A stretch of DNA of 64,000 nucleotides from Flavobacteriales bacterium (lineage in GTDB: Bacteria > Bacteroidota > Bacteroidia > Flavobacteriales_F > PHOS-HE28). The notes below the pieces were generated by a model. That model was not told the origin of the DNA, ran no database searches, and worked only from the letters and a program-made list of their open reading frames with translations. Positions 17,816 through 34,090 of the stretch are shown here, piece after piece (the first letter of the stretch is position 1; every line of letters begins with the position of its first letter). The DNA lies in the NCBI GenBank assembly GCA_046329105.1, contig JAXLVH010000004.1:29938-93937 (forward strand), given 5' to 3'. The translations under genes were made by a program, and so were the position numbers.

Positions 17816-19848
17816 ACCTCCGTCGCACGGCCCTTTTCATATTGCTCTTGGCCGCGCAAGCCCACGGCCAGGACCGTGCGCTCGACTCCCTCAGGAGCGC
17901 GCTCGACACCACCAGGCAGGACACCACGCAGCTTCGCACCCTGGTGAGGTTCTCGCAGATCGCCTCCCTCTCCAGCCCCGACACGGTGTACGCCCGGTTC
18001 ATGGCCAGGTTGATCGGCAAGCTGGAACAGGATCCGGCTGCCTCGGTAAGGGCGGTCGCGGAGGAAGCGAAGTTCAATTGGCTCATCTGGAAGGGCCAGA
18101 TGCGGCGGCGTGTATCGGACTATCGCGGCGCCGTGCGCATGTTCGAAGAGGCTGGTCGACTGGCCGAAGCGCGGGCCGACACCGCTCGCCTCCTGGACTA
18201 CGAGATGGAACTGGGTGACCTCTACGGGCGGATCAACGATACGATCACCGGCTTGCGACATGGCTATCGCGCGATGGAATACGCCATTGCGTTGGGCGAT
18301 AGCGCGCTGGCGGCGCGGATCCTTTTCGGTGTGGCCCGCTTCGATACTTCACGCGTCCGCCTCCTTTCATCTCTGGAATACGTCGATGCGTACGCGAAGA
18401 AGGCCCGATGGGAGAACAACGCTGGCTACTACGCCGCTCGTGGATGGATGCTGCAAGCTCACGGTGAACATGACCAGGCCATCGCCAACCTGGAACGGGC
18501 CGATAGCCTGTTGTCGGATCCCGATAGCCGGATGATCGCCCTGTACGCCTGGTTCCTTGGCGAAGCATATCTGAGCGTTGGTCGATCGGATGACGCCATT
18601 GCATCGTTCCGGCGTGCGCTCTCCGCTGCTGAACGCCATGGGATCAATGGATGGCACGCAGGCTGCGCCTTGGCATTGGGTTCCGAACTGAAGAGAACAG
18701 GTGACCAAGCCGGGGCCGAAGCGGCATGGTTGGATGCCTTGGCGCACGCGCGCCTCGGGAATTTCCCGGACCACAAGCTCACCGCGCTGGGCCACTTGAA
18801 AGACCTGTACACGGATCAACACCGCTATCGAGAGGCTTTGGAGACCACGGCACAATGGCTGGTGCTGAAGGACAGCTCGAACGTGGATGAAGCACGCAAG
18901 GACCTGCTACGTCTTGAATTTGGCACCGAGCAACGGGCGGACAGTCTGCAATTTGCACTTGAGCGTCAGGAAGCCTCGCGGGTTGTCGCACAGGAACGTA
19001 CCCGTCGCAACATTTTCCTTTTCTCTGGGATCGGCTTGCTGGCCTTCGGAGTGGTCGTATTCCGCCAGCGCAACCGGATCAGCAAGGCGCGCAAGCGCAG
19101 CGACGAATTGCTGTTGAACATCCTGCCGGAGGAAGTCGCGGAGGAATTGAAGGACACCGGTGCCGCACAAGCAAAACACTTCGATACGGCCACCATCCTC
19201 TTCACCGACTTCAAGGGTTTTACCCAGTTGAGCGAGAAGGTGACACCCGCCGAACTGGTCGCGGAACTGAACACCTGCTTCAAGGAGTTCGATCTGCTCA
19301 TGACCAAGTACCGCATCGAGAAGATCAAGACCATCGGCGACGCCTACATGGCCGCCGGTGGATTGCCCGATCCGCAGCATGGCTCACCGGCCGACGTAGT
19401 GCGCGCAGCCTTGGAGATGCAGGACTTCATGAAGCGCCATAAGGCCGAACGCGAAGCCGCTGGCAAGCCGTTCTTCGAGATGCGCGTGGGCATCCACACC
19501 GGCCCCGTAGTCGCCGGCATTGTGGGCGTGAAGAAATTCCAGTACGACATCTGGGGCGATACGGTGAACACGGCCAGCCGCATGGAGAGCAGCGGCGAGG
19601 TAGGGCAGGTCAATATCAGCGAGGCGACCTATGCGTTGGTGAAGGATGCGAAGAAGGTGAATGGCGAATGGTCAATAGTGAATGGGGGATCCACCCATTC
19701 ACCAACTCCCATTCACCATTCGCCCGCAACGGCCCATTCACCATTCACCAACTCCCATTCACCCGCATTCGTATTCACCCCGCGCGGCAAGGTGCAGGCC
19801 AAGGGCAAGGGGGAACTGGAGATGTATTTCGTGGAGCGCAAGGCTTGA
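17812..19848 (+). CDS. Membrane-anchored class III adenylate cyclase with periplasmic TPR-like sensor (tandem paralog 2)
   Basis: Start MNLRRTALFILLLAAQAHGQ overlaps the upstream stop (ATGA). Same architecture and the same in-frame insert. Confidence 0.8.
   Translation: MNLRRTALFILLLAAQAHGQDRALDSLRSALDTTRQDTTQLRTLVRFSQIASLSSPDTVYARFMARLIGKLEQDPAASVRAVAEEAKFNWLIWKGQMRRRVSDYRGAVRMFEEAGRLAEARADTARLLDYEMELGDLYGRINDTITGLRHGYRAMEYAIALGDSALAARILFGVARFDTSRVRLLSSLEYVDAYAKKARWENNAGYYAARGWMLQAHGEHDQAIANLERADSLLSDPDSRMIALYAWFLGEAYLSVGRSDDAIASFRRALSAAERHGINGWHAGCALALGSELKRTGDQAGAEAAWLDALAHARLGNFPDHKLTALGHLKDLYTDQHRYREALETTAQWLVLKDSSNVDEARKDLLRLEFGTEQRADSLQFALERQEASRVVAQERTRRNIFLFSGIGLLAFGVVVFRQRNRISKARKRSDELLLNILPEEVAEELKDTGAAQAKHFDTATILFTDFKGFTQLSEKVTPAELVAELNTCFKEFDLLMTKYRIEKIKTIGDAYMAAGGLPDPQHGSPADVVRAALEMQDFMKRHKAEREAAGKPFFEMRVGIHTGPVVAGIVGVKKFQYDIWGDTVNTASRMESSGEVGQVNISEATYALVKDAKKVNGEWSIVNGGSTHSPTPIHHSPATAHSPFTNSHSPAFVFTPRGKVQAKGKGELEMYFVERKA
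19657..19779. repeat. Palindromic in-frame element, copy 3
   Basis: Near-identical DNA to copies 1 and 2 (one GAT->ATT type difference). Lies just upstream of menA. Confidence 0.8.
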
Positions 19849-19883
19849 AGACGGTCGTGCGCGTTGGTGTTCCTTTGCCCGGC

Positions 19884-20774
19884 ATGAAGCACTGGCTCCA
19901 CGCCTTCCGCCTGCGCACACTTCCGCTCGCGGTGAGCAGCATTCTGGTTGGAAGTGCACTCGCCTCTTTCCACGGTGCGTTCCATTGGCCCGTGCTGGCG
20001 TTTGCCCTGCTGACCGCGGTGTTGTTGCAGATCCTCAGCAACCTGGCCAACGACCTGGGCGACCACCAGCACGGTACGGACAACGTGGAGCGCATCGGCC
20101 CGCAACGTGCGGTGCAGAGCGGGGCGATCGCCCCGGACATCATGAAGCGCGGCATGCTGGTGTGCGGATCCCTGGCCTTCCTGAGTGGCTGCGCATTGAT
20201 CACGGTGGCGCTCGGCTTCACATGGGGCGCCCTGATCTTCCTGCTGCTCGGTCTGCTCGCCATCGGTGCCGCGGTGAAGTACACCTTCGGGAAGGATCCG
20301 TACGGCTACGCCGGGTATGGCGACGCGAGTGTGTTCCTGTTTTTCGGTATTGTCGGAGTATGTGGAACCTTCTGCCTCCACACCCGCGTGTTCTTCCCGG
20401 CCGTGCTGCTGCCGGCGGTGGCCTTCGGGCTGTTGAGCACGGGTGTGCTCAACGTGAACAACATGCGCGACATCGCCAACGATGCGGCCAGTGGAAAGCG
20501 CACGCTGGTGGTGCGCATGGGCGGTGCCAACGCCAGGGTGTACCACACCTTGCTCGTGCTGGGTGGGATCGCCGGACTTGTCGGCTTCGCGGTGTTCACC
20601 CGGGATCGGTCAACCTTGCTGCCTTTGCTTGCCGCACCGGTTTTTCTCTGGCATCTTCGCCAGGTCTGGACGAACACGGAACCCCGGTTGTTGGATCCCC
20701 AGTTGAAAGTACTGGCCTTGGGCACCTTCCTCACCGCGCTGCTGTTCGCCGCAGGTCTCATCTTCGCGGCATGA
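19884..20774 (+). CDS. menA: 1,4-dihydroxy-2-naphthoate polyprenyltransferase
   Basis: ~296 aa polytopic UbiA-family protein (MKHWLHAFRLRTLPLAVSSILVGSAL...NDLGDHQHGTDN...). The upstream part of ORF 19668 overlaps the cyclase 3' end and is rejected. Confidence 0.8.
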   Translation: MKHWLHAFRLRTLPLAVSSILVGSALASFHGAFHWPVLAFALLTAVLLQILSNLANDLGDHQHGTDNVERIGPQRAVQSGAIAPDIMKRGMLVCGSLAFLSGCALITVALGFTWGALIFLLLGLLAIGAAVKYTFGKDPYGYAGYGDASVFLFFGIVGVCGTFCLHTRVFFPAVLLPAVAFGLLSTGVLNVNNMRDIANDAASGKRTLVVRMGGANARVYHTLLVLGGIAGLVGFAVFTRDRSTLLPLLAAPVFLWHLRQVWTNTEPRLLDPQLKVLALGTFLTALLFAAGLIFAA

Positions 20775-21826
20775 TGCAGGCAGCTTGGAAAGAGGTCCAT
20801 CTTACACCCCGGTTCCCGTTGGGCACCTCGAAAGGCACCATCACCTCGCGCACGCTGTGGTACCTGATCGCTTGGGATCCGGCTCGGCCGGGGATCAAGG
20901 GCATTGGCGAGGCCGCGCTGTTCCCCGGTCATAGCAAGGAGTTCCCCGCCGATGTGCGTGTGAAGCTGATGGAGCTGTGCACGAACACGTCCGACTGGAC
21001 GGACCGGCTGACCGGCGATCTGGTGGATCGGCCCAGTGTGCGGTTCGCCGTGGAGCAATGCCTGAAGGACCTCGACGCGGGTGGCAGCAAGGTGCTCTTC
21101 CCATCGGACTTCACGCTGGGGCGGAAGGGCGTGCCCATCAACGGGCTCGTATGGATGGGCGACAAGGCGAGGATGCGGGCGGACATCCGATCGCGCATCG
21201 ACACCGGTTTTTCCACCGTGAAGATGAAGATCGGCGCCCTTGCCATTGAAGAGGAGCTCGCGTTGTTGGCGGATGTGCGGCGTGAGTTCGGCGCCGGGAA
21301 CATCACCCTGCGGGTGGACGCGAACGGTGCATTCGACGCGCATACTGCACCTGAGGTATTGAAGCGCTTGGCGGACCTGCGGGTGGAGAGTATCGAGCAG
21401 CCGGTACCGCCGGGCTTGTATGAGCTGATGGCCGAACTGTGCGTCGCATCGCCACTGCCGATCGCGCTGGACGAGGACCTGATCGGCCTGAACACGGTAC
21501 AGGCCAAGCGCGACCTGCTGGACAACGTGCGGCCGCAGCGCATCGTGATCAAGCCCGGCCTGGTGGGCGGATGGACAGCGGCCGAGGAGTGGATCGCACT
21601 GGCCGATGCGCGCGGCATCGGCTGGTGGGTCACCAGTGCGCTGGAGAGCAACATCGGGCTGAACGCCATCGCCCAATGGGCGGCCATGATCGGCGTGAAA
21701 GGCACACAGGGCCTGGGCACCGGGAGTGTGTTCCTGGACAACATCCCCGCGCCGCTCGAGGTGGAGCGTGGTGCCCTGCACTACCGTCCCGAGCGGCCAT
21801 GGGACCTGTCCCGCATCATCGACTGA
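20771..21826 (+). CDS. menC: o-succinylbenzoate synthase (enolase superfamily)
   Basis: 351 aa. ATG overlaps the menA stop (GCATGATG). MR/MLE-type fold motifs (KMKIG, IEQP, LDEDL..KPGLVGG). Confidence 0.75.
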   Translation: MMQAAWKEVHLTPRFPLGTSKGTITSRTLWYLIAWDPARPGIKGIGEAALFPGHSKEFPADVRVKLMELCTNTSDWTDRLTGDLVDRPSVRFAVEQCLKDLDAGGSKVLFPSDFTLGRKGVPINGLVWMGDKARMRADIRSRIDTGFSTVKMKIGALAIEEELALLADVRREFGAGNITLRVDANGAFDAHTAPEVLKRLADLRVESIEQPVPPGLYELMAELCVASPLPIALDEDLIGLNTVQAKRDLLDNVRPQRIVIKPGLVGGWTAAEEWIALADARGIGWWVTSALESNIGLNAIAQWAAMIGVKGTQGLGTGSVFLDNIPAPLEVERGALHYRPERPWDLSRIID

Positions 21827-21832
21827 CCCGGG

Positions 21833-22945
21833 TTGCCCACCGTGATGTCGACCGGACCGGACACTTTCAACAGGCTCACCGTGGATGGGATCACCCGGCG
21901 CGGCCCGGAGATGCTGCGCTGGGCGGATGAGCTCGTGGAACGCCACGGCTCGGCATCCTGGGCTCTGGACCTGCGGGCCACATTGGCGAGGCTCATGGCC
22001 GATGGTTCGATCGACGTGCGCACGAGCGGGACCACAGGCGCACCGCGCGCTTTCCGATCCGGCATCCAGGATATCCTGGCGAGCGTTGCTCTGACACGGG
22101 ATGCGTTCGGCCTCGTTGAAGGGGACCGCGCGCTTCTCTGCGTGCCGTCCGGATTCGTGGCCGGGAAAATGATGCTGGCCCGGGCCATGGTGCTGGGCCT
22201 CGACCTGCACGTGATCGATCCCCAAGGGGGTGTACTGAACAACCTGCGCACAACGGATCGTTTCCGGTTCGCGGCCATGATCCCGCTGCAGTTGCATACC
22301 GCGTTGATGCACGATCGGGCCCGCATCGACGAACAGTTCGATACCATCCTGTTGGGAGGCGGCCCGGTGAGCGACGGCCTGGTGGCCATGCTCCGGGGTA
22401 TGCGTACACGCATCGTGCTGGGCTATGCCAGCACGGAGACGCTCACGCATGTGGCGTTGCGTCCGTTGAACGGCCCGGATGCCTCGGACGTGTACACCGC
22501 GCAACGCGATGTCACCTTCGCATCAGGCGGGCAAGGATGCCTGGTGGTGAGGACCCCGCATCTTTCGGTGAAGGAGCATGTGACCAACGACGCCGTCGAG
22601 GTGTTGGACGAACGGCACATGCGCTGGCTGGGCCGGCTCGACCATGTGATCCTGAGTGGTGGCCGCAAGATCCATCCCGAACGGCTGGAGGCCACTACGG
22701 AAGGTATTATTCCGATCCCGCACTTCTTCGCCGCACTGCCGGACGAACGTTTGGGTCAGGCGGTAGTGCTTGTGCTGGAAACCGGGGCTCCCGGCAGCGC
22801 ACCATCGATGGAACTGATGGAACGGATCAATGCCGCGCTGCACGAGCACGACCGCCCACGCCGGGTGATCACGCTGCGCAGCTTCATCAGAACGGGCACA
22901 GGAAAAGTGGACCGCAACAGCACATTGGCGTTGGCGGTGGGCTGA
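21833..22945 (+). CDS. menE: o-succinylbenzoate--CoA ligase (short AMP-binding enzyme)
   Basis: 370 aa. AMP-binding P-loop TSGTTGAPR, YASTE, C-terminal GKVDR. Position after menC. Confidence 0.7.
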   Translation: MPTVMSTGPDTFNRLTVDGITRRGPEMLRWADELVERHGSASWALDLRATLARLMADGSIDVRTSGTTGAPRAFRSGIQDILASVALTRDAFGLVEGDRALLCVPSGFVAGKMMLARAMVLGLDLHVIDPQGGVLNNLRTTDRFRFAAMIPLQLHTALMHDRARIDEQFDTILLGGGPVSDGLVAMLRGMRTRIVLGYASTETLTHVALRPLNGPDASDVYTAQRDVTFASGGQGCLVVRTPHLSVKEHVTNDAVEVLDERHMRWLGRLDHVILSGGRKIHPERLEATTEGIIPIPHFFAALPDERLGQAVVLVLETGAPGSAPSMELMERINAALHEHDRPRRVITLRSFIRTGTGKVDRNSTLALAVG

Positions 22946-22960
22946 GCAGGGCTCGTGATC

Positions 22961-23107
22961 CTACTTGCCCAGGATCTTGAACATGCCCGTGCCGCACTTG
23001 GTGCACGTGCCCTTCATGGCCTTGCGGCCGTTCGCCATCGTGTTCTCTTTGGCGTCCTTCATCTCACGTTTCGCCTTGCACTTCACGCAGTATCCTTCAA
23101 CGGCCAT
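22961..23107 (-). CDS. Small Cys-rich zinc-ribbon-like protein (DUF5679-like), 48 aa
   Basis: Not in ORF track (<60 aa). Translation MAVEGYCVKCKAKREMKDAKENTMANGRKAMKGTCTKCGTGMFKILGK with CxxC...CxxC. Confidence 0.55.
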   Translation of the reverse strand: MAVEGYCVKCKAKREMKDAKENTMANGRKAMKGTCTKCGTGMFKILGK

Positions 23108-23244
23108 GGTTCACTTCGGGTGTTGTTCCGCCGGATCCGGACGCGTTGCCGGAGCCGATGGATGGTTGGTTCGGAGCCAATGTAGGCGCGTATTCGACCG
23201 GAACGGTGCATGTGTGCCGGCAGTTGTCAACAATGACTGTGCGT

Positions 23245-23700
23245 TCACGCCAGGTCGTGCTCCATGTCCACGTGTGCGATCCCGTCCCACAGATAGGATC
23301 CGCCCACGGCGCGGAAACCGAAGGAGTTGTAGAAGCCCACCAGGTATTCCTGTGCGGCCAGCGCACTGCGACGGCTGCCGTACAACATTTCCAAGGCCGC
23401 CATCGTGCGGTGCATCAGGGCGCGCCCGAGTTGCTGGCCGCGGTGTTCCGGGTGAACGACCACGCGTCCGATGTGTGGAAGCCCATCCCCGTGCGGCGGA
23501 AGAATGCGCGCGTAGGCGACCAGTCCACCATCACCCGCTTGTCCCATCACATGGACGGCCTCCGTGTCCTGCCCGTCCACCTCGGCGTACACGCAGCGTT
23601 GCTCCACCACGAACACGTCCACGCGCAGGCGCAGGATGTCGTGGACCTCAGAACCAGTAAGCTCGGAGAAATGTTTCGTGTGCCAGGTGATCGTATGCAT
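23245..23700 (-). CDS. GNAT-family N-acetyltransferase
   Basis: 151 aa. Acetyl-CoA binding motif A region (RVVVHPEHRGQQLGRALM) and ...YNSFGF. Confidence 0.8.
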   Translation of the reverse strand: MHTITWHTKHFSELTGSEVHDILRLRVDVFVVEQRCVYAEVDGQDTEAVHVMGQAGDGGLVAYARILPPHGDGLPHIGRVVVHPEHRGQQLGRALMHRTMAALEMLYGSRRSALAAQEYLVGFYNSFGFRAVGGSYLWDGIAHVDMEHDLA

Positions 23701-23859
23701 ACGGGATATCCCGGTCGGGTCTGCGGTTCGTTCGGTGGCCCCGAGCGGTCATCAGCTCCGCGCTGACCGGACCGGTTCCGGTGGAATGTCGCAGTGGGCA
23801 CAAGGTATGGGGATGTGCAGGTGCCTTGGTGAGTTACGCGCCCGGCTTGAAGAACCCCT

Positions 23860-24200
23860 TCACCCTTGCCACGTTGAGTGACCTTGTCCTGACGAAGGAA
23901 GGGCCGAAGCGCCCATACACTGCCACGCTGAGCCTGCCGAAGCAGTAGCCAATGCCATGCACGCTCCTCTGCAGTGTCACGCTGAGCTTGCCGAAGCGCC
24001 CATGTTCTGTCACGCTGAGCACCTCGAAGTACCACCAGGCAATTGCCGCACTGATTTCAACGGATCGGGTCTGAGCCGTTCTGTGGTGTACAGCGCTTCG
24101 GCGCGCTCAGCGTGACAGCTCATAAAAATCCCCAAAGCTGTGTCACGCTGAGCCTGCCGAAGCGCTACCATACTCCTCACGACTGTCACGCTGAGCGCAT
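23860..24200. repeat. Array of degenerate ~27-bp TGTCACGCTGAGC(N)TGCCGAAGCGC repeats with ~25-110 bp variable spacers (hairpin/REP-like family), locus A
   Basis: At least 6 copies in both orientations. Includes a long imperfect palindrome (TGTCACGCTGAGC...GCTCAGCGTGACA spanning ~24009-24118). Confidence 0.8.
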
Positions 24201-24292
24201 TGACCCGTCCTATTCTGGGTTTACAGGTTTAGGGTTGTGTCCGAAGATAGGTTTACAGTTGCGATGATGACCTGGCCTAGGTTTACAGCAGG
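24201..24292 (-). mobile_element. Truncated right-end fragment (92 bp) of the same IS3-family element, inverted orientation
   Basis: Reverse complement matches 1481-1577 of the complete IS (TGACCCGTCCTA(T/A)TCTGGGTTTACAGGTTTAGGGTTGTGTCCGAAGATAGGTTTACAG...GGTTTACAGCAGG, ~90% identity). Similarity stops exactly at the ATG of the downstream gene. Confidence 0.85.
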
Positions 24293-25978
24293 ATGAGAAC
24301 CGCTATCCTACTACTGATCTGCTGTGCCCTGTTCGTAACACAGCGCATTAGCGCACAAGTCATTGATTGGCTCCATCACTATGGCGAACCCGGGGGATTG
24401 CGGGTTTCGGGGGGCTTCAGACTTGCCGCCGATGGAGAAGGCCATGTCTTCGCAGCCGGGGAATTTTTTGGATCGGATTTTGACCTCGGCGGTGTGCAGT
24501 TCGTCTCGGATGATGATGACTGGGCGCTCTTGAAGTATGACGCGGCCGGCAACCTTCTTTGGGCTCGCCACATACTGAGCACTTGTTGGTACAGCGATCT
24601 CGTGGATATACGCGACTTGGACTATGATCCGGTAAATGAGCAGATCGTGGTGACGGGATATTACAGCGCACCGCAACAGTTCCCGATCGACACATTGTGG
24701 GGGGGCTGTTTGGAGGAGTCGTACTTCGGCTTCGTGGTCTGCTTCGATACGGAGGGGAACACTCTATGGGCGAAGCAGATCACCGGAGGCCAGATCTCCA
24801 TAATGGAGACATCCATTGCGAGTGACGGATCCGTGCATGTGTTCGGTATTTCGCGATACGGAAGCGCCACATTCCAAGAATCACCTATCCTGAGCACCCC
24901 GCAAGGCAGTTTCCATGCGGTGTACTCCTCCACGGGAATGCTGAATAGTGCGCAACACCTGAGCGGCTCGGCCGTTGATGTGTACGGAGGCGCCGTTTGT
25001 GCGGACGGTAGTTTGGTGCTCTGTGGCTGGATAAAGCAGGCCGGTAGCATACTCGGCGAGCCATTCGCACCCAGCGAGGGTGATACAGCCGCGTTTGTTT
25101 TGAAGAGCGACACCTCGGGAAGCAACATTGATTGGATAGATGTACTTCCTTCAACAGCTTCGGCCTCCACTGGGAAGTGCATCATCCTGCCCAATGGACC
25201 GATCATCATTGCCGGCGGATTCCAAGACGATGTCATTGTGCAGTCCGACACGCTTCAATCCCCTGCGGGCATCTCCAACGGATTCATTACCGCAATTCAA
25301 CTCGATGGCGAGATCCGTTGGGTGCGACAGCTGGAGTCTACCGGAGTTGGGGGTTACGCATCCGCCCTTGATTATGATGGTGCGGACCAATTGTATCTTT
25401 CCACAGGGTACACTGGTGAAATGCGGTTGGGCGGCACCATTGAGCTTCCCTCGGTCGCCCAACGGAATGGGTTGATCGCACGCATCGACACCCTCGGGAA
25501 TTGGCAGGCCGCGTGCGTCATGGGAGGCACCTACCGTGGTAACTTCGTGTCCATTGGCCCAGATGGTCTCTTCTTCTCGTGTGGATATGACTCCACTTGG
25601 ACCATGGGGACCACCACCGTACCGTATCCAGTAGGATCCAACGAACTGTACCGTACCTTCCTCATCATTGGCAAGCTTGACAGCCTCAGCGGCTTCACAG
25701 GCATCAGCACGATGCCCCTGCAACAGGAAGGCGGCCTGCACATCTACGCCAACCCCAACAAGGGCACCTGCACCATCGACCTGCCGGATCAATTGCAGCT
25801 CACCCCTGGTCTGGTGCTCAATATTGTGGACCAGAACGGGCAACTGGTGCAACGGGTCCCGGTGGTGTACAGCCCCCAAGGCGTAGCCATCGACATACGC
25901 GCCCAGGCCAGAGGCATCTACCACGTGGAACTGAGCGATGGGCGGCAGCGCTACACGGGAAAGATCGTGTTCGAGTAG
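24293..25978 (+). CDS. Secreted beta-propeller repeat (SBBP-like) protein with T9SS C-terminal sorting domain
   Basis: 561 aa. Signal peptide. Repeated ...GN.LWA...G...D..Y units. C-terminal HIYANPNKGTCTIDL...GKIVFE type-A CTD. Confidence 0.7.
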   Translation: MRTAILLLICCALFVTQRISAQVIDWLHHYGEPGGLRVSGGFRLAADGEGHVFAAGEFFGSDFDLGGVQFVSDDDDWALLKYDAAGNLLWARHILSTCWYSDLVDIRDLDYDPVNEQIVVTGYYSAPQQFPIDTLWGGCLEESYFGFVVCFDTEGNTLWAKQITGGQISIMETSIASDGSVHVFGISRYGSATFQESPILSTPQGSFHAVYSSTGMLNSAQHLSGSAVDVYGGAVCADGSLVLCGWIKQAGSILGEPFAPSEGDTAAFVLKSDTSGSNIDWIDVLPSTASASTGKCIILPNGPIIIAGGFQDDVIVQSDTLQSPAGISNGFITAIQLDGEIRWVRQLESTGVGGYASALDYDGADQLYLSTGYTGEMRLGGTIELPSVAQRNGLIARIDTLGNWQAACVMGGTYRGNFVSIGPDGLFFSCGYDSTWTMGTTTVPYPVGSNELYRTFLIIGKLDSLSGFTGISTMPLQQEGGLHIYANPNKGTCTIDLPDQLQLTPGLVLNIVDQNGQLVQRVPVVYSPQGVAIDIRAQARGIYHVELSDGRQRYTGKIVFE

Positions 25979-26018
25979 ATCGACCATCGTATCATTTGCT
26001 CAGCAGGATCCCAAAGTC

Positions 26019-26632
26019 GGATCACGCTGAGCGCGTCGAAGCACCACCAAGCAATTGCCGCACTGTTTTCAACGGATCGGGTCTGGACCGTTCTATGGTG
26101 TATTGCGCTTTGGCGCGCTCAGCGTGACAGTTCATAAAGATCCCCAAAGCCGTGTCACGCTGAGCATGCCGAAGCGCTACCCCAATGTCACGCACGCTCC
26201 CCTGCAATGTCACGTGGAGCATGCCGACGCGCTATTCCGATACCGTTCGCTCTCCCATGTGCTGTCACGCTGAGCCTGCCGTAGCGCTACTTCGATGCCT
26301 TGCAAAATCCCAAGCAATGTCACGCTGAGCATGCCGAAGCGCTATCCCGATGTCATGCACGCTCCCCTGCAATGTCACGCTGAGTGCGCCTGTCCTGACA
26401 AAGGAAGGACCGAAGCGCTATTCCGATACCGATCGCTCTCCCATGTTCTGTCACGCTGAGCTTGTCGAACCGGTCCTCGCTTCGCAGTCTTCGCCGCCGC
26501 GAAGCGCTTTTTGCGCCTGCATCGCCTTCGAGTAGCCGCTTCGGCGCAGCAAGGCGCCAGAGCGCTCCGGCGTCGACGCTTGGAGCGCGGAGCGGCTACG
26601 CATAGGCGCGGTCGGCAGGCTCACTATGACAT
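26019..26632. repeat. Array of TGTCACGCTGAGC-family repeats, locus B (about 5 tandem ~55-bp units plus a long terminal hairpin)
   Basis: Units are a 27-bp repeat plus ~28-bp spacer-like segment falling into two related classes. Terminal ~180-bp imperfect palindrome TGTCACGCTGAGCTTGTCGAACCGG...GGCTCACTATGACA. First ~160 bp is a direct repeat of 24010-24169. Confidence 0.8.
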
Positions 26633-26789
26633 TCAATAGGGATCATGATGGAGGTATGATAGGATCCTTGCCTGCCATCAGCGGGATGACGCAGGTTCAT
26701 CGAGGTAGCCTTCGCATGGCTGCGGCTACTGAAAGCGGGAGACCCGGCGGGCGAGATACAGAATGATCCCGTAGAACCGGATGATGCGT

Positions 26790-29700
26790 TCAGAGCACCT
26801 CCACCAGACCACCGTCACTCACGTAAAGCAGGTACCCGCTAACACTCGCTTCACCGAGTTCGCGGAGCAGGCGCATGTACAGGGCCACTTGTTCGTGATG
26901 CGCAGGTGAAGGCGCGCCGGTCTTGATGTCGAGCACGCGAGTGCCGGTGCCATCGGTGGTGAGGCGATCGGGGCGATGGGCATGGCCATGGGCATCGATC
27001 AAGGTGGCTTCGGTACGCGTGCGCAGCCCGGGTGCGAAGAAGGGTGCCACATCGGGGCGGGCCAGGAGGGCGGCCAGGCGTTGGTGAATGGCGTCCTTGT
27101 CCTGTGGGGCGACCCCGGCGGCCGCGGCCTCGCTTTCCACCGCTGCCGCAAGGTCTTCGGTCACGTGCGTGCGTGCCAGGATGGCGTGCAGCAGCTTGCC
27201 ATGGGCGCGGAAGGGATCGGGATCGACGGGATCCCAGTTGGTGGGAGCCTCCTGACGAATGCGGATGCGTACAGGTTCAGCGGGCATGGGCGCATGCAGA
27301 TCCAAGAGGCCTTCCCGGTCACGTTCCGTGTGCGTGGGTGCGGGTGACCGGGTTCCACGTTCCAGGCGGTCGCCGGGGCCGAGGCCAAGGATCGTGCAGG
27401 CCGCATGGCCCGCGCCGCTCTTGCGGCGGCCATCGAAGGCGGCGTACAGTCGCAGCACGGGCCGGGTGAAGGCCACATAGATGAGGTCCATCACATCGAG
27501 TGCGCCCAGTTCCTTCTCCTCCTCGATCGCGGGGATGCCCAGCGCGTCCAGCACCTTGTTGGGCGTTACGAGCGCGGCAGGGAGTTCAGGTACCGTTGGG
27601 CGGGGATCGATCCATTGTCGGTCGCGCTTGTTGGATCCCAGCATGTCGGCGAAGGGGACGATGACCACCGGGAACTCCAGCCCCTTGCTCTTGTGTACGG
27701 TCATCACCTGCACGGCGGCCTTGTTGGTCGCGCCGCCCACCGGGCGTTTCCGGGCCGTGCGTTCCCAATGTTCCAGGAAAGCGGGTATGGCACTGCCGTG
27801 CTCCTGGGCGAAGGTGTGGGCCTCGTTGAGCAGGCCGAGGGCGAAGGCATCACGCGAGGGATCGAGGTCCAGCGCGCGCAGGATGGCGTGCAACAGGGCA
27901 TGGAGCGGTGCGCGGGGATGGATGGCCGGACGGGTGCTGCACCATGTGCGCATCTGCTCCGCGGGGTGCCCGCGCTCGGGCGCCGTGCCGTGGTCGGGTC
28001 GCAGCAGGGCGAGCAGTTGCACGGCCTGTGCGGCGCTCACGTCATCGGGTCTGCAGGTCCAGGCCAGCAGCGCCATGGCGGTGCGCGCACCGGGATCGGC
28101 GCCCAAGGACAAGGCATCTGGCGACACCACCTGGTGGCCCTGCACCACGAGGTGCGCGGCCACGGCATTGCCCTGGTTGCCCGAGCGCACCAGTACGGCG
28201 ATGTCGCCCGGTTTGAAGCCATCGGCCAGCGCTTCGCGCACGGCTCCGGCCGTGAATACCAGAGGGTCAGGATCGATATGTTCGTCATCCCCGGGAGCAT
28301 CGTTCTTCTCCGGCTTCGCGAAGCACGCCACCCGGACAAGGCCCTCATGGTCGTTCACGGCGAGCTGGGCGGGCGCGTCGTACACGATCCGGTATTTTTC
28401 CGGCAGGGTATCGCGGAGCGCGGCGAAGAGGTCATTGTTGAAGGCGATGACGGCTCGCGCGCTGCGGCGGTTCTCCAGCAGCGGGTCGATGGGCGCCCAG
28501 GTGCGCAGGAGGATGCCTTCGTGGCCGTCGCCGTCGGCCAGGCGCTCCTTGCCGAAGAGGTGGGGCAGGGCGGTGAACTGGCGGGCTTCACCATTGCGCC
28601 AGCGGTAGATGGCCTGCTTGGCATCGCCCACCAGCAGGGCCGTTCCACCGGTGCTGAGGGCGTTGGTGATGAGCGGAAGCAGGGCGTGCCATTGCAGCAG
28701 CGAGGTGTCCTGGAACTCGTCGATCAAGAAGTGCCGGTATTTTTCTCCGAGCCGTTCGTACAGGAAGGGCGCCGGTTCACGCTGCACGATCGCGGCCACC
28801 TTTTTCACCAGGTCGCTGAAGAAGACGAGGGCCTCCTCCCGTTTCACCGTTTCGAGCCGGTCACTCAGCAGATGCAGGCCGGCCGCGGGGAGCAGGTCCT
28901 CCAGCACGGCGCAGCGCAAGGTGTGCGCTCCCAGTTCACCCGACCCCCGTAGATCCTCCACTTCCTGTATCGTTTTTCGCAGCAGCGGGGCTGTCCGCTC
29001 CACGGCAGCCTTCACTGATGCCGATGCTTTGCCGCTGGTCCATGCGTCCTTCGCCATGGCTTTCCGCACGTGATCGTTCGGGTCCAGCGCCACGTCAAAT
29101 ACGGCGAGCTTGTTCAAGTACGACCAAGGGCCGTTCTTGCCATAGGCCAGGTCGTCCGCGTTGATGCCTTCGGCAGCCAGTGCGGCCAAGGCGTTGCGGC
29201 CGAGGGTGCGCAGGCGCTCGCGGAAGGTGTGCGTGGCACGGCGCAGGTCGCGCTGGATCGCCACGAAGTCCTGGTCCTGTGAGTCTTGCAGTTTCAGCAA
29301 GGGATCGATGGCGGCCTCCTTGGTAAGCTGGTCCGAGAGGTTGAGGAGGGGCCGATCGACGCGCCAGACATCCTCGTTCTCCACCAGGTCCGACCCGATG
29401 GAGGTGAGCAATGTGGTGAGCGCGGGGTCGCTACCGGCATCCTCCAGCAGGCGGTCCACGGCCCGGGCGCGCATTTCCTTTTCCTCGGTTGTCATGCGCA
29501 GTTCGCTGTCCATCTGCAGGTCACGGGCGAAGGGCATCACCACGCGGCGGGTGAAGGCGTCAATGGTGCTCACGGCGAACTGCGGCCAGTGATGCAGGAT
29601 GTGGGTGAGTGTGCGGGCAGCGCGCTCGCGCACGGTGGCCGGGTCAAGGCCCGCCTCGCGAACGATGGTGTCGCGCACGTTGGCCAGGGCACCGGTCAGT

Positions 29701-29897
29701 TCCGTTCCGGCCGCGAGTCCTTCCAGGTAGGTGATGATGCGTTCGCGCATCTCGCCGGCGGCCTTGTTGGTGAAGGTGAGCGCCAGGATGCGACCGTACG
29801 CGCCGGGTTCGTCTTCCCGCAACGCCAGCAGCAGGTAGTGCCGCACCAGTGCGTGGGTCTTGCCGGCACCGGCCGAGCTATGGAGTGCTTGGAACAC
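26790..29897 (-). CDS. AddA/RecB-like helicase-nuclease (UvrD-family helicase with C-terminal PD-(D/E)xK nuclease)
   Basis: 1035 aa. N-terminal SSAGAGKTHALV Walker A and ILALTFTNKAAGEMRERI (UvrD motif I/Ia). C-terminal nuclease motif ...VLDIKTG...EQVALYMRLL.... No adjacent AddB-like partner. Confidence 0.8.
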   Translation of the reverse strand: MFQALHSSAGAGKTHALVRHYLLLALREDEPGAYGRILALTFTNKAAGEMRERIITYLEGLAAGTELTGALANVRDTIVREAGLDPATVRERAARTLTHILHHWPQFAVSTIDAFTRRVVMPFARDLQMDSELRMTTEEKEMRARAVDRLLEDAGSDPALTTLLTSIGSDLVENEDVWRVDRPLLNLSDQLTKEAAIDPLLKLQDSQDQDFVAIQRDLRRATHTFRERLRTLGRNALAALAAEGINADDLAYGKNGPWSYLNKLAVFDVALDPNDHVRKAMAKDAWTSGKASASVKAAVERTAPLLRKTIQEVEDLRGSGELGAHTLRCAVLEDLLPAAGLHLLSDRLETVKREEALVFFSDLVKKVAAIVQREPAPFLYERLGEKYRHFLIDEFQDTSLLQWHALLPLITNALSTGGTALLVGDAKQAIYRWRNGEARQFTALPHLFGKERLADGDGHEGILLRTWAPIDPLLENRRSARAVIAFNNDLFAALRDTLPEKYRIVYDAPAQLAVNDHEGLVRVACFAKPEKNDAPGDDEHIDPDPLVFTAGAVREALADGFKPGDIAVLVRSGNQGNAVAAHLVVQGHQVVSPDALSLGADPGARTAMALLAWTCRPDDVSAAQAVQLLALLRPDHGTAPERGHPAEQMRTWCSTRPAIHPRAPLHALLHAILRALDLDPSRDAFALGLLNEAHTFAQEHGSAIPAFLEHWERTARKRPVGGATNKAAVQVMTVHKSKGLEFPVVIVPFADMLGSNKRDRQWIDPRPTVPELPAALVTPNKVLDALGIPAIEEEKELGALDVMDLIYVAFTRPVLRLYAAFDGRRKSGAGHAACTILGLGPGDRLERGTRSPAPTHTERDREGLLDLHAPMPAEPVRIRIRQEAPTNWDPVDPDPFRAHGKLLHAILARTHVTEDLAAAVESEAAAAGVAPQDKDAIHQRLAALLARPDVAPFFAPGLRTRTEATLIDAHGHAHRPDRLTTDGTGTRVLDIKTGAPSPAHHEQVALYMRLLRELGEASVSGYLLYVSDGGLVEVL

Positions 29898-30054: not shown

Positions 30055-30810
30055 ATGAAGAAGACGATCCTGGCCATGTTCGGCACCGCGATCCTGCTGG
30101 CCGGCTGCGAAAAGGACGATCTGGAGGAGACGCATGAGAACCTCGTGGGCCCCGATGGTGCCAACACCGTGGTGGCCATGAGCATGAGCTTCACGCACGA
30201 CGGTGCGGCCTTCGATACGAGCATGGTCCTCACCGACGTTCAAGGTGTGCGATACAAGCTCGAACAGCTCCGTTTCTACATGGGCCACTTCGACTTCACC
30301 AACGACAACCACGACAGTGTGGCATCGTTCCCGAACAAGTATTTGAAAGTGGACCTGGCCGAGGGGGGCACGATCCGCAACATCGGCCAGCTCAGCGGGC
30401 ATTTGCACGACATGAGCTTCGGCCTCGGAGTGGACAGTGTGAACAATCACGCTGATCCGGCAACGGTGGAAGCACCCCTGGGCGTGAACGGCATGTACTG
30501 GACATGGAACCAGGGCTACATCTTCCTGGCGATCGATGGTCGCTGGGACAGTAATAACGACGGGCAAGTAGGTGAAGGCGATCAGATGCTGAGTTACCAC
30601 CCGGGTCGGGATTCCCTGTACACGCCGATGGTGTTGCAAGTGCATACCGACGCGGACCAGGGAGGCAACGTGGTGCTGCCTTTGGACCTGAACATCGACA
30701 CCTTGATGGCGGGCATTGATATCCAGGCCTTGCCGGTATCGCATGATGTCAGCGATCATACCGTCCGCCTGATGCATCAGCTCTCGACCGCGATCACCCA
30801 CGTGCAGTAG
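30055..30810 (+). CDS. Periplasmic lipoprotein, putative MbnP-like copper-binding protein (partner of downstream di-heme peroxidase)
   Basis: 252 aa. Lipobox LLAGC. Paralog of the next gene with conserved GMYWTW..Y.FL..GR.D motif. Identity as MbnP is inferred from size and context only. Confidence 0.4.
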   Translation: MKKTILAMFGTAILLAGCEKDDLEETHENLVGPDGANTVVAMSMSFTHDGAAFDTSMVLTDVQGVRYKLEQLRFYMGHFDFTNDNHDSVASFPNKYLKVDLAEGGTIRNIGQLSGHLHDMSFGLGVDSVNNHADPATVEAPLGVNGMYWTWNQGYIFLAIDGRWDSNNDGQVGEGDQMLSYHPGRDSLYTPMVLQVHTDADQGGNVVLPLDLNIDTLMAGIDIQALPVSHDVSDHTVRLMHQLSTAITHVQ

Positions 30811-31572
30811 ATGAAGAATGCAGTGCTCCTCCTCGCTTCGGCGATGCTCGTCGGATGCCGTCACGACCCACCGGTGGAACCCGAGCCGTTGCCGCCACCC
30901 GGCGGTACGCCCAGCGGCGTATTGCGGATCACGTTCCGGCCCATTTGGGACGGAACAGCCTTCGACAAGACCAACGTGTACCTGAGCGCGGCGAACGAGC
31001 GCGTACTGATCCAGCAGGTGAAATTCTACCTGAGCCCATTGGTGTTCTCGGGCGACACCACCGCTCGCGCCACCGATGCGGTGCTGCTCGATCTGGTGAA
31101 CGGACCGGAAGCACGGAGCTACAGCCTGCCGGTGGGCACGTACGACAGCCTGCATTACGGCCTCGGTCTGCCGTACAATCTGAACCATGCGGATGTCACG
31201 GGGATCGATCCCGGATCGGACCTCGGCGCGGGCTCCGGCATGTACTGGACCTGGGCCACCATGTACCGCTTTTTGATCTTCGAGGGGCGGTACGATACGG
31301 ATCCAGCGGGAACGGGCACGCCGCCCTACCAGTTCAGCCTGCACACCGGTCGTGATGAATGCTACCGTGAACGGACCATCGCCACGCCGCTCGCGATGAC
31401 GGACGGCGACACCACGGACCTGATCATCGATGTGGATGTGGCGCGTTTCTTCACCGACGGGAACCAACTGCTGGACCTGTCGCAAGGCCCGCAAGCGCAC
31501 GGGGAGGTGGAGAACCTGGGGCCCGCGCTGCGGCTGAGTGATCTCGCGGTGAAGGCCATCAACGCGGAATGA
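30811..31572 (+). CDS. Periplasmic lipoprotein, second putative MbnP-like paralog
   Basis: 253 aa. Lipobox MLVGC. Same conserved tryptophan-rich motif. Immediately follows the previous stop. Confidence 0.4.
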   Translation: MKNAVLLLASAMLVGCRHDPPVEPEPLPPPGGTPSGVLRITFRPIWDGTAFDKTNVYLSAANERVLIQQVKFYLSPLVFSGDTTARATDAVLLDLVNGPEARSYSLPVGTYDSLHYGLGLPYNLNHADVTGIDPGSDLGAGSGMYWTWATMYRFLIFEGRYDTDPAGTGTPPYQFSLHTGRDECYRERTIATPLAMTDGDTTDLIIDVDVARFFTDGNQLLDLSQGPQAHGEVENLGPALRLSDLAVKAINAE

Positions 31573-31575
31573 GCG

Positions 31576-32592
31576 ATGCCGCGGCGGTCCCTCCTTCTGC
31601 TGCTCTGCATCGCCAGCATCGGCTGCCGCAAGGAGGAGGCCGTTCCGGACAAGGAGGTGGACGAGGCGTTCGTGGTGCTCATGCCGCCCGGGGCTCCATC
31701 CCTGCCGGTGCCCTCCGGGAATGAACCTACCGTTGCAAGGGTAACATTGGGCAAGGCGCTGTTCTTCGATGAGCGCTTGTCCACGGGCAACGGCATCTCC
31801 TGCGCGAGCTGTCATCATGCGGACCGAGCCTTCGGCGACACCTTGCCGTTGAGCATCGGTGCGCAGGGCCTGCATGGACTGCGCAATGCGCCCACCCTGG
31901 CCAATGTGGCGTGGCAGCCGTACCTGTTCGCGGATGGCGGCATGCCCACCCTTGAACAACAAGTGCTCTCGCCCATCCACACCGAAGAGGAGATGGCCAG
32001 CAACATCGTGGACGCGGCCGCGGCGCTGGAGGGCGATGAGCGTTATGCCGCGTTGAGCCGGTTGGGCTACGGCCGCGAATTGGATCCCTTCGTCATCACC
32101 CGGGCCATCGCCTGTTACGAACGCACGCTGGTGAGTGGGTGGTCGCGTTACGATCGTTACGTGTACGAAGGGGATCAGAACGCACTCACGGATCAGGAAC
32201 GCCACGGGTACGAACTGTTCACGAGCGCGTCCATCGGCTGTTCCGGTTGCCACAGCGGCTACAGCCTCAGCGATCACAGCTTCCGCAACGTGGGCCTGGC
32301 CTCTGACCTGGTGGCCGATCCGGGTCGGCAGCGCATCACGTTGGACCCGGCCGACCGGGGCAAATTCAAAGTGCCCACTTTGCGCAACGTGGCCCTCACC
32401 GCACCGTACATGCACGATGGTTCGCTGGCCACGCTCGATGCGGTGGTGGCGCATTTCGTCGGCGGTGGAACAGAGGACCCGTTGAAGGATCCGCTTGTAC
32501 ACCCCTTGGACCTCAGCGCCCAGGACCAGGCGGACCTTGTGGCCTTCCTGCACACGCTGACCGATGACCGATCTTTGGACCAGGTACCATGA
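31576..32592 (+). CDS. Di-heme cytochrome c peroxidase family protein (CCP/MauG/MbnH-like)
   Basis: 338 aa. Two CXXCH motifs (CASCHH, CSGCHS) ~145 aa apart. Conserved PYMHDGS segment. Lipoprotein-like N-terminus. Confidence 0.8.
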   Translation: MPRRSLLLLLCIASIGCRKEEAVPDKEVDEAFVVLMPPGAPSLPVPSGNEPTVARVTLGKALFFDERLSTGNGISCASCHHADRAFGDTLPLSIGAQGLHGLRNAPTLANVAWQPYLFADGGMPTLEQQVLSPIHTEEEMASNIVDAAAALEGDERYAALSRLGYGRELDPFVITRAIACYERTLVSGWSRYDRYVYEGDQNALTDQERHGYELFTSASIGCSGCHSGYSLSDHSFRNVGLASDLVADPGRQRITLDPADRGKFKVPTLRNVALTAPYMHDGSLATLDAVVAHFVGGGTEDPLKDPLVHPLDLSAQDQADLVAFLHTLTDDRSLDQVP

Positions 32593-33776
32593 AGAAGAGA
32601 CACCACCTGCTCGTTGCTATCCTGACCATGGTATTTTTCTCGGCCTCGTGCCGCGAAGAGGAACCAGCGGTGCCCGACCCCCCGTCGGGGAACGAAGGGG
32701 GTAACGGCTACGGATTCGCGCCACATACGCCCGTACCGGTGGTGCTGGACATCCCGGCCAACATGCCGCCGATGCCCATACCACCCGACAATCCGCTCAC
32801 GGAGGAAGGCATTGCCCTGGGCCGATTCCTGTTCTATGAGGAACGCCTCAGCGGGGACAACACCATGAGTTGCGCGCAATGCCACGCTCCGGCCCATGCG
32901 TTCACCGATGGCAATGCGGTCAGCGTGGGGATCGATGGCATCGCCGGTAACCGGTCCTCCATGCCGCTCATCAACCTCGGCTATGCGCAGAGCTTCTTCT
33001 GGGACGGCCGCGTGGCGACCTTGGAGGAGCAGATCCTCAATCCGGTCCGGAATCCCATCGAGATGCACGAGATCTGGCCCGATGTCGTATCCAAGCTGCA
33101 GGCGGATACCGCGTACGTCAAGTTGTTCTGGGATGCGTTCGGAACGACCACCGTGGACTCCTTGCTCGCCGCGAAAGCGGTCGCTCAGTTCCTGCGTACA
33201 CTGATCAGCGCGAACAGTCCCTGGGACAAGTGGCGGCGCTTCGAGGGCACCATTCCGCTGGATGCCCAGATCGGCTACGACCTGTTCAAGATGGAAGGCG
33301 GTCCGGTGGGCATGCCATTCCAGTTGCCGGGTATGGATTCAACGATCATCGGGCAGGGAGGCGCGGATTGTTTCCACTGCCACGTGGAGGCGGCCGGGCT
33401 GTTCACCGATGAGCAGTTCCACAACAACGGGCTGGACAGCGAACCCTTCGCTGACCTGGGCCGCGGCGGCTTCAACAACGATCCGTTCGACAACGGGAAG
33501 TTCAAGACGCCCACGCTGCGCAACATCATGCTTTCCGCACCCTACATGCACGATGGCCGTTTCGCCACCATCGAGGAGGTGCTGGATCACTACAACGACG
33601 GCGGGCATCCGAGTTCCACGGTGGATCCCTTCATGAAATTCACCGACCCGGACCTGACCCTGGAGTTGGACGCCACGAAGCGCGCGCAGATCCTGGCCTT
33701 CCTGAATACGCTCACGGACACGGAGTTCATCGAGAACCCCGCGTTCGCCGATCCCGGACCGCCGCATTGGCCGTAG
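32589..33776 (+). CDS. Di-heme cytochrome c peroxidase family protein (second copy)
   Basis: 395 aa. CAQCHAP and CFHCHVE heme motifs. PYMHDGR. Start overlaps the upstream stop (ATGA). Confidence 0.8.
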   Translation: MKKRHHLLVAILTMVFFSASCREEEPAVPDPPSGNEGGNGYGFAPHTPVPVVLDIPANMPPMPIPPDNPLTEEGIALGRFLFYEERLSGDNTMSCAQCHAPAHAFTDGNAVSVGIDGIAGNRSSMPLINLGYAQSFFWDGRVATLEEQILNPVRNPIEMHEIWPDVVSKLQADTAYVKLFWDAFGTTTVDSLLAAKAVAQFLRTLISANSPWDKWRRFEGTIPLDAQIGYDLFKMEGGPVGMPFQLPGMDSTIIGQGGADCFHCHVEAAGLFTDEQFHNNGLDSEPFADLGRGGFNNDPFDNGKFKTPTLRNIMLSAPYMHDGRFATIEEVLDHYNDGGHPSSTVDPFMKFTDPDLTLELDATKRAQILAFLNTLTDTEFIENPAFADPGPPHWP

Positions 33777-34090
33777 GAACGGGACCGGCCCGGTCCATGT
33801 GTGCGTTCCGGAACAGGTAAGGGATGAGATGAGGGTGAAGGGTCCGGCCGAAGCCATTGTACCTCCTGCAGTAAAATATACTCGGGTCTGATCGCGCGTT
33901 CCGCATGCGGAATGAAGAATTCTCCGCACTACTTCACCGCGCAGGTCGTTCCGTAGCACCTGCTCCGCAGGTCGTCCTGCAGAAGGATCGGAACGTATCA
34001 TCGGACCACCCCTTATCGTGTATTGGTATAATACCCCTTCGCAATCCAGCATCGTCCGATCGAACCATGAAATCCCATGCTGGATCCGAC

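Follow-up and report, generated by a model that had tools for sequence, protein, structure and literature searches.

The short repeats that cluster around a gene encoding a protein with a type IX secretion system (T9SS) tail in a 64,000-nt stretch of DNA from an uncultured member of the Flavobacteriales (contig JAXLVH010000004.1; hereafter the window, meaning this whole stretch) are probably repetitive extragenic palindromic (REP)-type elements of the CGTC/TGTC-tagged kind. REP-type hairpin repeats are small selfish DNA that has already been described in many bacteria. The unit is 25 nt long with the consensus TGTCA-N3-TGAGC-N4-CGAA-N3′, that is, TGTCACGCTGAGC-NNNN-CGAAGCGC, in which a left half is joined to a right half. 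The window holds about 20 units, 15 on the plus strand and 5 on the minus strand, when model matches, degenerate copies and two 46-nt forms are counted together, and they are arranged singly, as inverted dimers of 81-184 nt, or as a degenerate tandem array of 55-nt period. All copies fall into three intergenic clusters (locus A, 23867-24198; locus B, 26020-26632; locus C, 34094-34281), except for a solitary unit at 54450-54474. An earlier note on this DNA had proposed at least 15 copies of a ~27-bp motif in both orientations; the count and the orientations hold, whereas the length had to be corrected to 25 nt.

The unit is real and lies beyond chance. With up to two mismatches allowed, TGTCACGCTGAGC has 21 matches in the window versus 3.0 ± 1.7 (maximum 8) in dinucleotide-preserving shuffles. 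The unit can be drawn as a hairpin in which an unpaired TGTC(A) tag is followed by a variable stem of 3-4 bp, a U-A pair, a tandem G.A/A.G, a G-C pair and a 5-nt loop, CYUGY; the sequence of the stem is free, and its pairing is required. Two of the eight stem positions are the conserved G.A/A.G, formed by 5′-UGAG and 5′-CGAA. A pyrimidine-GA-purine context favours sheared G.A pairs in RNA and DNA alike, and the tandem pairs of the unit would probably adopt this sheared geometry. The 5-nt loop (C-YTG-Y) is closed by the G-C pair; Chloroflexota-type units have a C-G pair and a GNA triloop instead. The tag TGTC(A) stands ahead of the stem in nearly all window units (TGCC at 23921-23945), and in other genomes 57 of 93 independent units have TGTCA ahead of the stem and four have CGTCA. 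At the first pair, A5-N25, 80 of 138 units from the various genomes have A-T and 36 have A.C; the window has A.C. The 3′ tail reads CCA after the units ending at 23912 and 23999, and TAC or TAT after most other window units.

The evidence for the hairpin came from covariation. In 822 kb of other genomes, the TGAGC-N4-CGAA core occurred 230 times against 6.3 expected; when the copies selected by the search pattern were subtracted, 93 independent units were obtained. Three Watson-Crick pairs flank the core in 63 of them, compared to 7.3 when the right flanks were shuffled, and at least 13 different stem triplets are represented. For 80 distinct units, the covariation score was 0.367 versus 0.101 ± 0.014 in shuffled sets, with none of 500 shuffles reaching 0.367, and it did not exceed 0.106 when the partners were slid. 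Within this set, pair 6-24 is CG in 24 units, UA in 22 and GC in 18, and pair 7-23 is CG in 22, GC in 21, UA in 10 and AU in 8. Since the stem covaries, the hairpin is under selection. Moreover, a covariance model trained on foreign units only, none with the CGC stem of the window, recovered 14 window units at E <= 0.002, all at 23921-24165, 26020-26473, 34094-34225 and 54450-54474, as well as weaker degenerate copies at 26208, 24184, 26608 and 34258; the inner hairpins of the 46-nt forms are weak matches too. The matches lay only in the clusters and at 54450-54474, which bears out the placement of the copies at loci A, B and C and at one further site near 54449-54473 that had been proposed earlier.

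The unit is widespread outside the window. In a scan of one genome per species, the exact 20-base pattern TGTCACGCTGAGCNNNNCGAAGCG was found in more than 115 loci of at least ten phylum-level groups; among the matches listed were Bacteroidota, Chloroflexota, Gemmatimonadota, Eremiobacterota/Vulcanimicrobiota, Acidobacteriota, Ignavibacteria, Chlorobi, Nitrospinota and a candidate phyla radiation (CPR) lineage. At foreign loci, the units usually form an inverted pair, the arms of which are often unlike (e.g., ...CGC-TGAGCTTGTCGAA-GCG ... TCC-TTCGACAAGCTCA-GGA...), and each arm of such a pair retains its own local complementarity. Close neighbour pairs comprise 49 inverted dimers with tags out, 19 with tags in and 12 tandem pairs; 74 of 216 units are solitary, and 31 of 50 distinct inverted dimers are heterodimers, that is, their stems differ between the arms. 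A metagenome scan with a subfamily-specific pattern yielded ten contigs, the window locus and nine different loci (G+C 57-62%), where the units form dimers and also clusters with as many as 12 members, eight of them standing in tandem with a 43-nt period, so that the repeats are not confined to one locus. A generic pattern also matched more than 120 contigs in IMG/VR. Perfect 3-bp stems were seen in 109 of 148 of these matches, and therefore real units are also present on predicted viral or prophage DNA. On the predicted viral contigs, the unit-bearing strand is C-rich in 64 of 92 loci (p = 2e-4), a bias not seen in bacterial genome loci (29 to 28) and not explained by crude sense/antisense counts.

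The content of the arrays differs even between near-identical strains. Two contigs, L245 and L246, come from a sister strain, whose flanks are 98.4-99.9% identical to the window and whose layout is the same. Compared to the window, array B of L246 is longer by two units, and array B of L245 is longer by 318 nt; this additional DNA holds the 110-nt dimer for a second time, within a block that has 87% identity to locus A and was copied from there into locus B. These differences look like the expected product of unequal or ectopic recombination between clusters. The earlier note had listed recombination, termination and mRNA stability as possible functions of the repeats, and the variable array content speaks for the first of them.

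As to the known REP families, Di Nocera, De Gregorio and Rocco (2013, BMC Genomics 14:522; PMC3733652) divide prokaryotic REPs into GTAG- and CGTC-tagged superfamilies. According to their paper, the CGTC tag is altered to TGTC in many repeats (CCTC being a further variant), the stems of 8-9 bp start with complementary A-T, the loops have 4-5 nt, and the short unpaired 3′ tail is close to CCA. Dimers predominate and have structured spacers, heterodimers being predominant in CGTC-2 and CGTC-3; the elements lie mainly between co-directional and convergent open reading frames (ORFs); the hosts named are Proteobacteria, Chlorobi, Bacteroidetes (Gramella forsetii), Spirochaetes and Thermotogae; and no dedicated transposase is given for them. 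The window unit resembles the superfamily so described, and CGTC-2 in particular, in its tag, 5-nt loop, dimer habit, heterodimers, structured dimer spacers, intergenic context, spread over several phyla (Bacteroidetes and Chlorobi included) and want of a transposase, and in part also in its stem, which has eight positions, two of them the G.A/A.G. In the intragenic-copy table of the same paper, the Sulfurovum CGTC-2 peptide reads RHSELVSGS; back-translated, it would correspond to CGTCATTCTGAGCTTGTC..., with the tag of the window unit and with its left arm and loop (CTGAGCTTGTC), whereas the right arm in this back-translation is Watson-Crick (CTCAG) in place of CGAAG. The CGTC-3 peptide VIAGLDPAI (GTCATCGCCGGGCTTGACCCGGCGATC) has the tag in common with the window unit and a similar loop, CTTGA. 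Unlike the superfamily as described there, the window unit carries the conserved tandem G.A (CTGAG...CGAAG vs. CTGAG...CTCAG), and many units form head-to-tail clusters. A possible link between the two REP superfamilies may be seen in a RAYT (REP-associated tyrosine transposase)-flanking REP of Planctomyces limnophilus, GTGGCACGCTCTGAGGTCCTCCGAAGGGCGTGGT (ADG68653; PMC6006769, Table S1), which has a GTGG tag and the same tandem G.A layout, CUGAGG...CCGAAGG, as the window unit.

With the bacterial interspersed mosaic elements (REP/BIME) and the REPIN-RAYT systems of E. coli and Pseudomonas, the window repeats share a short hairpin whose foot carries a conserved 5′ tetranucleotide, as well as inverted doublets, mosaic intergenic clusters, lack of target duplication, and strain-variable copy number and arrangement. 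They differ in that the tag is TGTC, not GTAG, and in that the core is near-identical across phyla, whereas REP-RAYT pairs are lineage-specific. The REP/BIME-like character suggested by the earlier note is supported: the repeats are dispersed and intergenic, have a covarying hairpin and form inverted dimers and clusters, their spacers are not unique, and no cas genes were found in the window. Literature matches to the sequence strings of the unit were unrelated primers only, and no CGTC copy was found in the first 50 kb of S. meliloti pSymB.

Several points weigh against the assignment to CGTC/TGTC-tagged REPs. In Di Nocera et al., head-to-tail clusters are described as rare in CGTC families, and the CCA tail and A-T first pair given there are only partly shared by the window unit, with its TAC/TAT tail and A.C pair. 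At the sequence level, the putative membership derives from text, table and one back-translated peptide of that paper. The differences between strains were read from metagenome assemblies of short reads, in which repeats can be mis-assembled. Single units fold weakly (-2.6 to -7 kcal/mol), no better than shuffles, and therefore covariation, not stability, is the evidence for the hairpin; this suggests that a factor recognises the hairpin, and not that its role is purely physical. As regards the cognate RAYT gene that the earlier note had proposed to look for, Pfam scans of the window ORFs found no Y1_Tnp/RAYT gene, and no RAYT motif was present in 2.17 Mb around units. Bacteroidetes RAYTs of subclass 2.6 have REPs that are GCTAG/GCTG-tagged perfect hairpins, unlike the window unit (PMC6006769). 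A phmmer search with the Y1_Tnp protein of a locus designated L247 gave one relative, an 89-aa, internally deleted RAYT-like pseudogene on the metagenome contig Ga0268298_10103118 (L255), which carries the unit subfamily of the window; this pseudogene has, however, a copy of another REP, GGCGCGAGCGTCCACGCTCGTGCC, on either side, the two copies being inverted relative to each other, and that REP is absent from the window and all other loci compared. Subclass 2.6 was ruled out as the source of the cognate enzyme by its different REPs, the L255 pseudogene being flanked by that REP kind.

Two features of these loci may be recorded here. Positions 786-1143 of L255 form a small REPtron with the pseudogene at 823-1092 on the minus strand, devoid of an HUH motif, and a TGTC-unit dimer adjoins it at 661-737. 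In L247 (GCA_049289815.1, a Flavobacteriales metagenome-assembled genome), the 187-aa Y1_Tnp/RAYT-like gene (SHVH ... YIHNNP) occupies 5227-5790 in a row of four T9SS-tail paralogues, one of which is 37% identical to the T9SS protein of the window; no TGTC units were found at this locus.

According to another interpretation, the hairpin with its TGTC tag and tandem G.A would make up an element class of its own, spread across bacteria, on which a mobility or maintenance system not described so far would act. The core is near-identical in at least ten phylum-level groups and on phage-like contigs, and only the stem covaries, which would mean that a widespread trans-acting factor recognises the element; since no RAYT is linked to units, this factor would not be a RAYT, and might be either a single-strand DNA transposase of a new type or an enzyme that all hosts possess. 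We regard this interpretation as tentative and rather doubtful.

For the CGTC/TGTC-tagged REPs that we prefer, the units would arrive as non-autonomous DNA, without target duplication, and a structure-specific enzyme supplied in trans, which reads the 5′ tetranucleotide and the hairpin, would most likely act on them in single-stranded form. The logic of such a presumed enzyme would be that of the HUH/Y1 (RAYT-like) enzymes: we infer an HUH-like mechanism because of the anatomy of 5′ tetranucleotide plus hairpin and the lack of target duplication. Examination of 50 distinct dimers showed no target-site duplication at 37, 1 nt at 9, 2 nt at 3 and 3 nt at 1, which is a chance distribution, and the dimer palindrome stops at TGTCA/TGACA. 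By analogy, this would fit insertion without duplication, as with single-strand HUH enzymes. After arrival, the clusters would grow and be reshuffled by tandem duplication and ectopic recombination between clusters. The local effect would be mainly structural: the repeats would have split what was once the helicase-acetyltransferase junction, lengthened the spacers and supplied homology for rearrangement around the T9SS gene.

The features of the clusters and their surroundings are listed in the table.

Table. Repeat units, dimers, lineage-specific segments and flanking genes of loci A, B and C and of the solitary unit (window coordinates; E, covariance-model E-value)
Feature	Positions	Strand	Details
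46-nt long-loop unit	23867-23912	+	normal ends TGCCACGTTGAG ... CCGAAGCGC
25-nt unit, tag TGCC	23921-23945	+	E 6.8e-5
25-nt unit	23975-23999	+	E 2.4e-6
110-nt inverted dimer, tags outward	24008-24117		units 24008-24032 (+), 24093-24117 (-)
25-nt unit	24141-24165	+	E 2.4e-6
Unit, left half only	24184-24198	+	intact unit TGTCACGCTGAGCGCATCGAAGCGC in sister strain
110-nt inverted dimer, second copy, orientation as first	26020-26129		repeat family, fold and model match
Tandem array, four 55-nt blocks (25-nt unit + 30-nt spacer)	26153-26372	+	units start 26153, 26208 (degenerate), 26263, 26318
46-nt long-loop unit (26373-26418) + class-2 spacer	26373-26448	+	
184-nt inverted dimer	26449-26632		units 26449-26473 (+), 26608-26632 (-, degenerate)
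25-nt unit, top-scoring window copy	34094-34118	-	E 1.7e-6
81-nt inverted dimer	34201-34281		units 34201-34225 (+), 34257-34281 (-); -45.3/-52.8 kcal/mol
Solitary unit	54450-54474	+	E 3.4e-5; start codon of rpsB 66 nt downstream
Lineage-specific 3.09-kb insert	23701-26789		locus A, insertion sequence (IS)-end remnant, T9SS gene and locus B
Lineage-specific 652-nt spacer	33777-34428		holds locus C
Locus A flanks, divergent	23245-23700; 24293-25978	-; +	acetyltransferase gene; T9SS-tail gene
Locus B flanks, convergent	24293-25978; 26790-29897	+; -	T9SS gene; UvrD/PD-(D/E)XK helicase-nuclease gene
Locus C flanks, convergent	32589-33776; 34429-35943	+; -	CCP_MauG gene; pyridine-nucleotide-disulphide oxidoreductase gene

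The loop of the first 46-nt unit holds a second small hairpin of UGA/GAA layout, with a weak model match at 23882-23900. The 110-nt dimer of locus A has two small stem-loops in its 60-nt spacer and folds at -50.9/-56.2 kcal/mol (z -3.9/-5.0); a segment of locus B that begins within the second copy, 26022-26181, is 91% identical to 24010-24169 over 160 nt. The 184-nt dimer (-101.8 kcal/mol, z -4.25) resembles the 81-nt dimer of locus C at both ends: the two agree over the first 37-40 nt and, at 35 of 41 positions, over the last 41 nt, and ~100 nt are nested in the central hairpin of the longer one. In the 81-nt dimer, the stem is CGG/CCG in place of CGC/GCG. Overall, the window dimers fold at -45 to -102 kcal/mol, with z of -3.9 to -6.2 versus shuffles, as expected of inverted repeats. 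The earlier note had described each array as ending in a long imperfect palindrome; palindromes of 110, 184 and 81 nt were indeed found, and locus B has a palindromic dimer at its beginning as well as at its end. The solitary unit, itself part of a longer hairpin, TGTTGTCG...CGACGACA, occupies what is presumably the promoter region or the 5′ leader of rpsB.

The truncated unit at the right end of locus A was clarified by the sister strain, where L245 (193-436) has an intact unit followed by ~225 nt of unique sequence and then the IS-end remnant. Therefore, the window has suffered a ~229-bp deletion next to the half unit at 24184-24198, which took the right half of one unit together with the ~225 nt and joined the loop of the unit to the IS-end remnant. 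An IS insertion into the loop of the 24184 unit had been considered instead, and it was ruled out by the intact unit of the sister strain. The remnant itself (24199-24292) is a 94-nt end of an IS3-family element, 89-91% identical, with three GGTTTACAG repeats, and in both the window and the sister strain it abuts the T9SS start codon upstream.

The gene context of the window was taken from Pfam and gene calls on matching contigs. Contig JADLFZ010000253 (GCA_020849595.1) has 100% identity to window 18785-26344, and four contigs from this population match the window at 99.7-100% identity without indels, several of them stopping inside clusters. Two more distant relatives were compared, with helicases 78% and 63% identical and an acetyltransferase that has 70% identity along its entire length. 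Their helicase and acetyltransferase genes either overlap or are separated by 7 nt, the oxidoreductase and CCP_MauG genes are 2-7 nt apart, and units are absent from 13-23 kb of syntenic DNA. Because the relatives have these tight, unit-free junctions, 23701-26789 and the spacer of locus C are lineage-specific insertions. The G+C content of the 3.09-kb insert is 54-59% versus 60-72% in the flanks. No further copies of 23701-23866, 26633-26789 or the non-repeat parts of locus C were found in the sequences compared.

A different explanation holds that the hairpin or dimer is transcribed and works as a structured RNA element, either in cis (3′-end protection, attenuation, a processing site) or as a small RNA. 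The covarying stem and the tandem G.A, a classic RNA motif, would suit such a role, and so would the location of loci B and C downstream of genes and the lower number of units in divergent than in convergent spacers (20-22 vs. 41-49). There is also a sub-threshold likeness to Rfam RF02901 (AaHKsRNA41, Aggregatibacter sRNA 41), the consensus of which has the core GCUGAgCUUGcCGAAGC in common with the window, as an inverted pair; at 24.9 and 19.5 bits versus a gathering score of 97, and with a different tag and flanks, the window unit is not a member. Rfam gave nothing at the gathering score in the window or in 15 loci from other phyla. By crude ORF calls, solitary units between co-directional genes number 23 sense and 22 antisense, an even split that does not support the mRNA-stability function and speaks against a strand-specific RNA function as the general rule. 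Termination is not supported either: the region shows no enrichment of intrinsic-terminator-like sites (3 vs. 2.0 expected), and single units are, as said above, no stabler than shuffles. The excess of G.T over A.C mismatches (9 vs. 4) is not significant. Finally, the units are missing at orthologous sites in the relatives and variable between strains, and locus A lies in a divergent promoter region. An RNA role is thus possible for individual copies and is not supported as a general explanation, which we consider unlikely. Hammerhead and kink-turn readings of CUGAG...CGAAG were rejected, as there is no CUGAnGA box, three-way junction or 3-nt bulge.

The dimers of 75-184 nt are bounded by TGTCA...TGACA, and DDE elements typically have TG...CA ends, so that classical miniature inverted-repeat transposable elements (MITEs), that is, internally deleted DDE insertion sequences moved via their terminal inverted repeats, had to be weighed as well; the repeats resemble them in being short and non-coding and in having such ends, and the window does contain an IS3-family element (164-1578) and the end remnant described above. 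The chance-level target-site duplications at the 50 dimers are hard to reconcile with this, as are the ends of the IS3 element, TGACYCGTCCT...GGGTTTAC, which are unrelated to the units; there is no other IS in the window. Unlike the ends of MITEs, the arms of the window dimers are independent hairpins, often differing, and no parent IS accompanies them; the high share of heterodimers with locally pairing arms and of solitary units argues in the same direction. No long unit-bounded element encoding a transposase was found; two far-apart inverted unit pairs were checked as ends of a long element, and they enclose L19, RNase HII, RNA methyltransferase and aldehyde dehydrogenase. The MITE-like reading of the earlier note is therefore weak, and we consider a MITE origin very unlikely. 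The IS3-family element itself has orfA at 203-592, an rve-domain ORF at 589-1557 and a 3-bp direct repeat, GAT, and it appears to interrupt a minus-strand ORF.

Even less probable are integron-attC-like cassette sites that would exchange the T9SS gene between the two 110-nt palindromes. The gene is bracketed by two directly oriented imperfect palindromes of this length, and in the strain with near-identical flanks its allele encodes a protein only 71% identical. However, the divergent part of the gene is internal and its ends are conserved, and therefore the boundaries of exchange are not at the palindromes. Besides, Pfam scans of the ORFs found no integrase or recombinase gene in the window, no cassette accompanies the units at locus C or in other genomes, and no RYYYAAC/GTTRRRY attC core sites are visible, the ends being TGTCACGCTGAGC / GCTCAGCGTGACA. 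Hypervariability of the T9SS-tail gene deserves mention in its own right: window 24293-25978 and L245 535-2211 encode proteins of 71% identity despite flanks 98.4-99.9% identical, the first 640 nt being 95.5% and the last 500 nt 92-93% identical, with a middle of ~545 nt unalignable by blastn. Such a pattern suggests either that the gene has been recombined as a mosaic or that diversifying selection acts on a surface or secreted protein.

A degenerate or orphan CRISPR array can practically be dismissed: locus B does look superficially CRISPR-like, as the earlier note remarked, with a regular 55-nt period and ~5 copies of a 25-nt repeat plus 30-nt spacer (Tandem Repeats Finder, 26153-26384: period 55 x 4.2 copies, 71% matches; period 110 x 1.8 copies, 80%), but the repeats match at 71% only, the spacers alternate between the two self-similar classes noticed earlier (26178-26207 ~ 26343-26372; 26233-26262 ~ 26419-26448), the units occur in both orientations, as palindromic dimers and dispersed in many phyla, mostly as dimers, Pfam scans of ORFs found no cas domains in the 64-kb window, and the one locus-B spacer checked had no exact match in IMG/VR. 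The spacers are thus repeated in classes and not unique. Taken together, the CRISPR, classical-MITE and cassette-site explanations are rejected or unlikely.

Some further features of the window were noted. Upstream of and including the CCP_MauG gene next to locus C, 30055-33776 carries the tandem duplicates MbnP-MbnP-CCP_MauG-CCP_MauG, a di-haem peroxidase cluster whose order is conserved in all relatives examined. Paralogous adenylate/guanylate cyclase genes are located at 7914-10964, 14445-15737 and 17599-19848, two of them with TPR repeats, and share stretches of 76-80% identity. Four sites, each at an end of a cyclase gene or close to one, carry a 7-nt tandem repeat, CCATTCA (~4 copies); among them are 15626-15655, 17665-17694 and 19695-19763.

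For annotation, these results mean that the arrays are not CRISPR and that the repeats are not to be called small ORFs; the clusters also break short-read assemblies, several public contigs of the species ending in them. The kind of element is already described, and its HUH-like mobilising mechanism is one that we only infer; the conserved core together with the covarying stem is nevertheless a sharper definition than the published one. The window is a clean example of repeats reshaping a genome: two junctions that are tight in relatives have widened here, one to 650 nt and the other to 3.1 kb. Two homologous clusters now enclose a variable gene for a surface protein of the T9SS type, and near-identical strains differ by whole repeat blocks. 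The conserved core and the covarying stem provide a precise motif for a phylogenetic-profile hunt for the mobilising enzyme of the CGTC/TGTC repeats.

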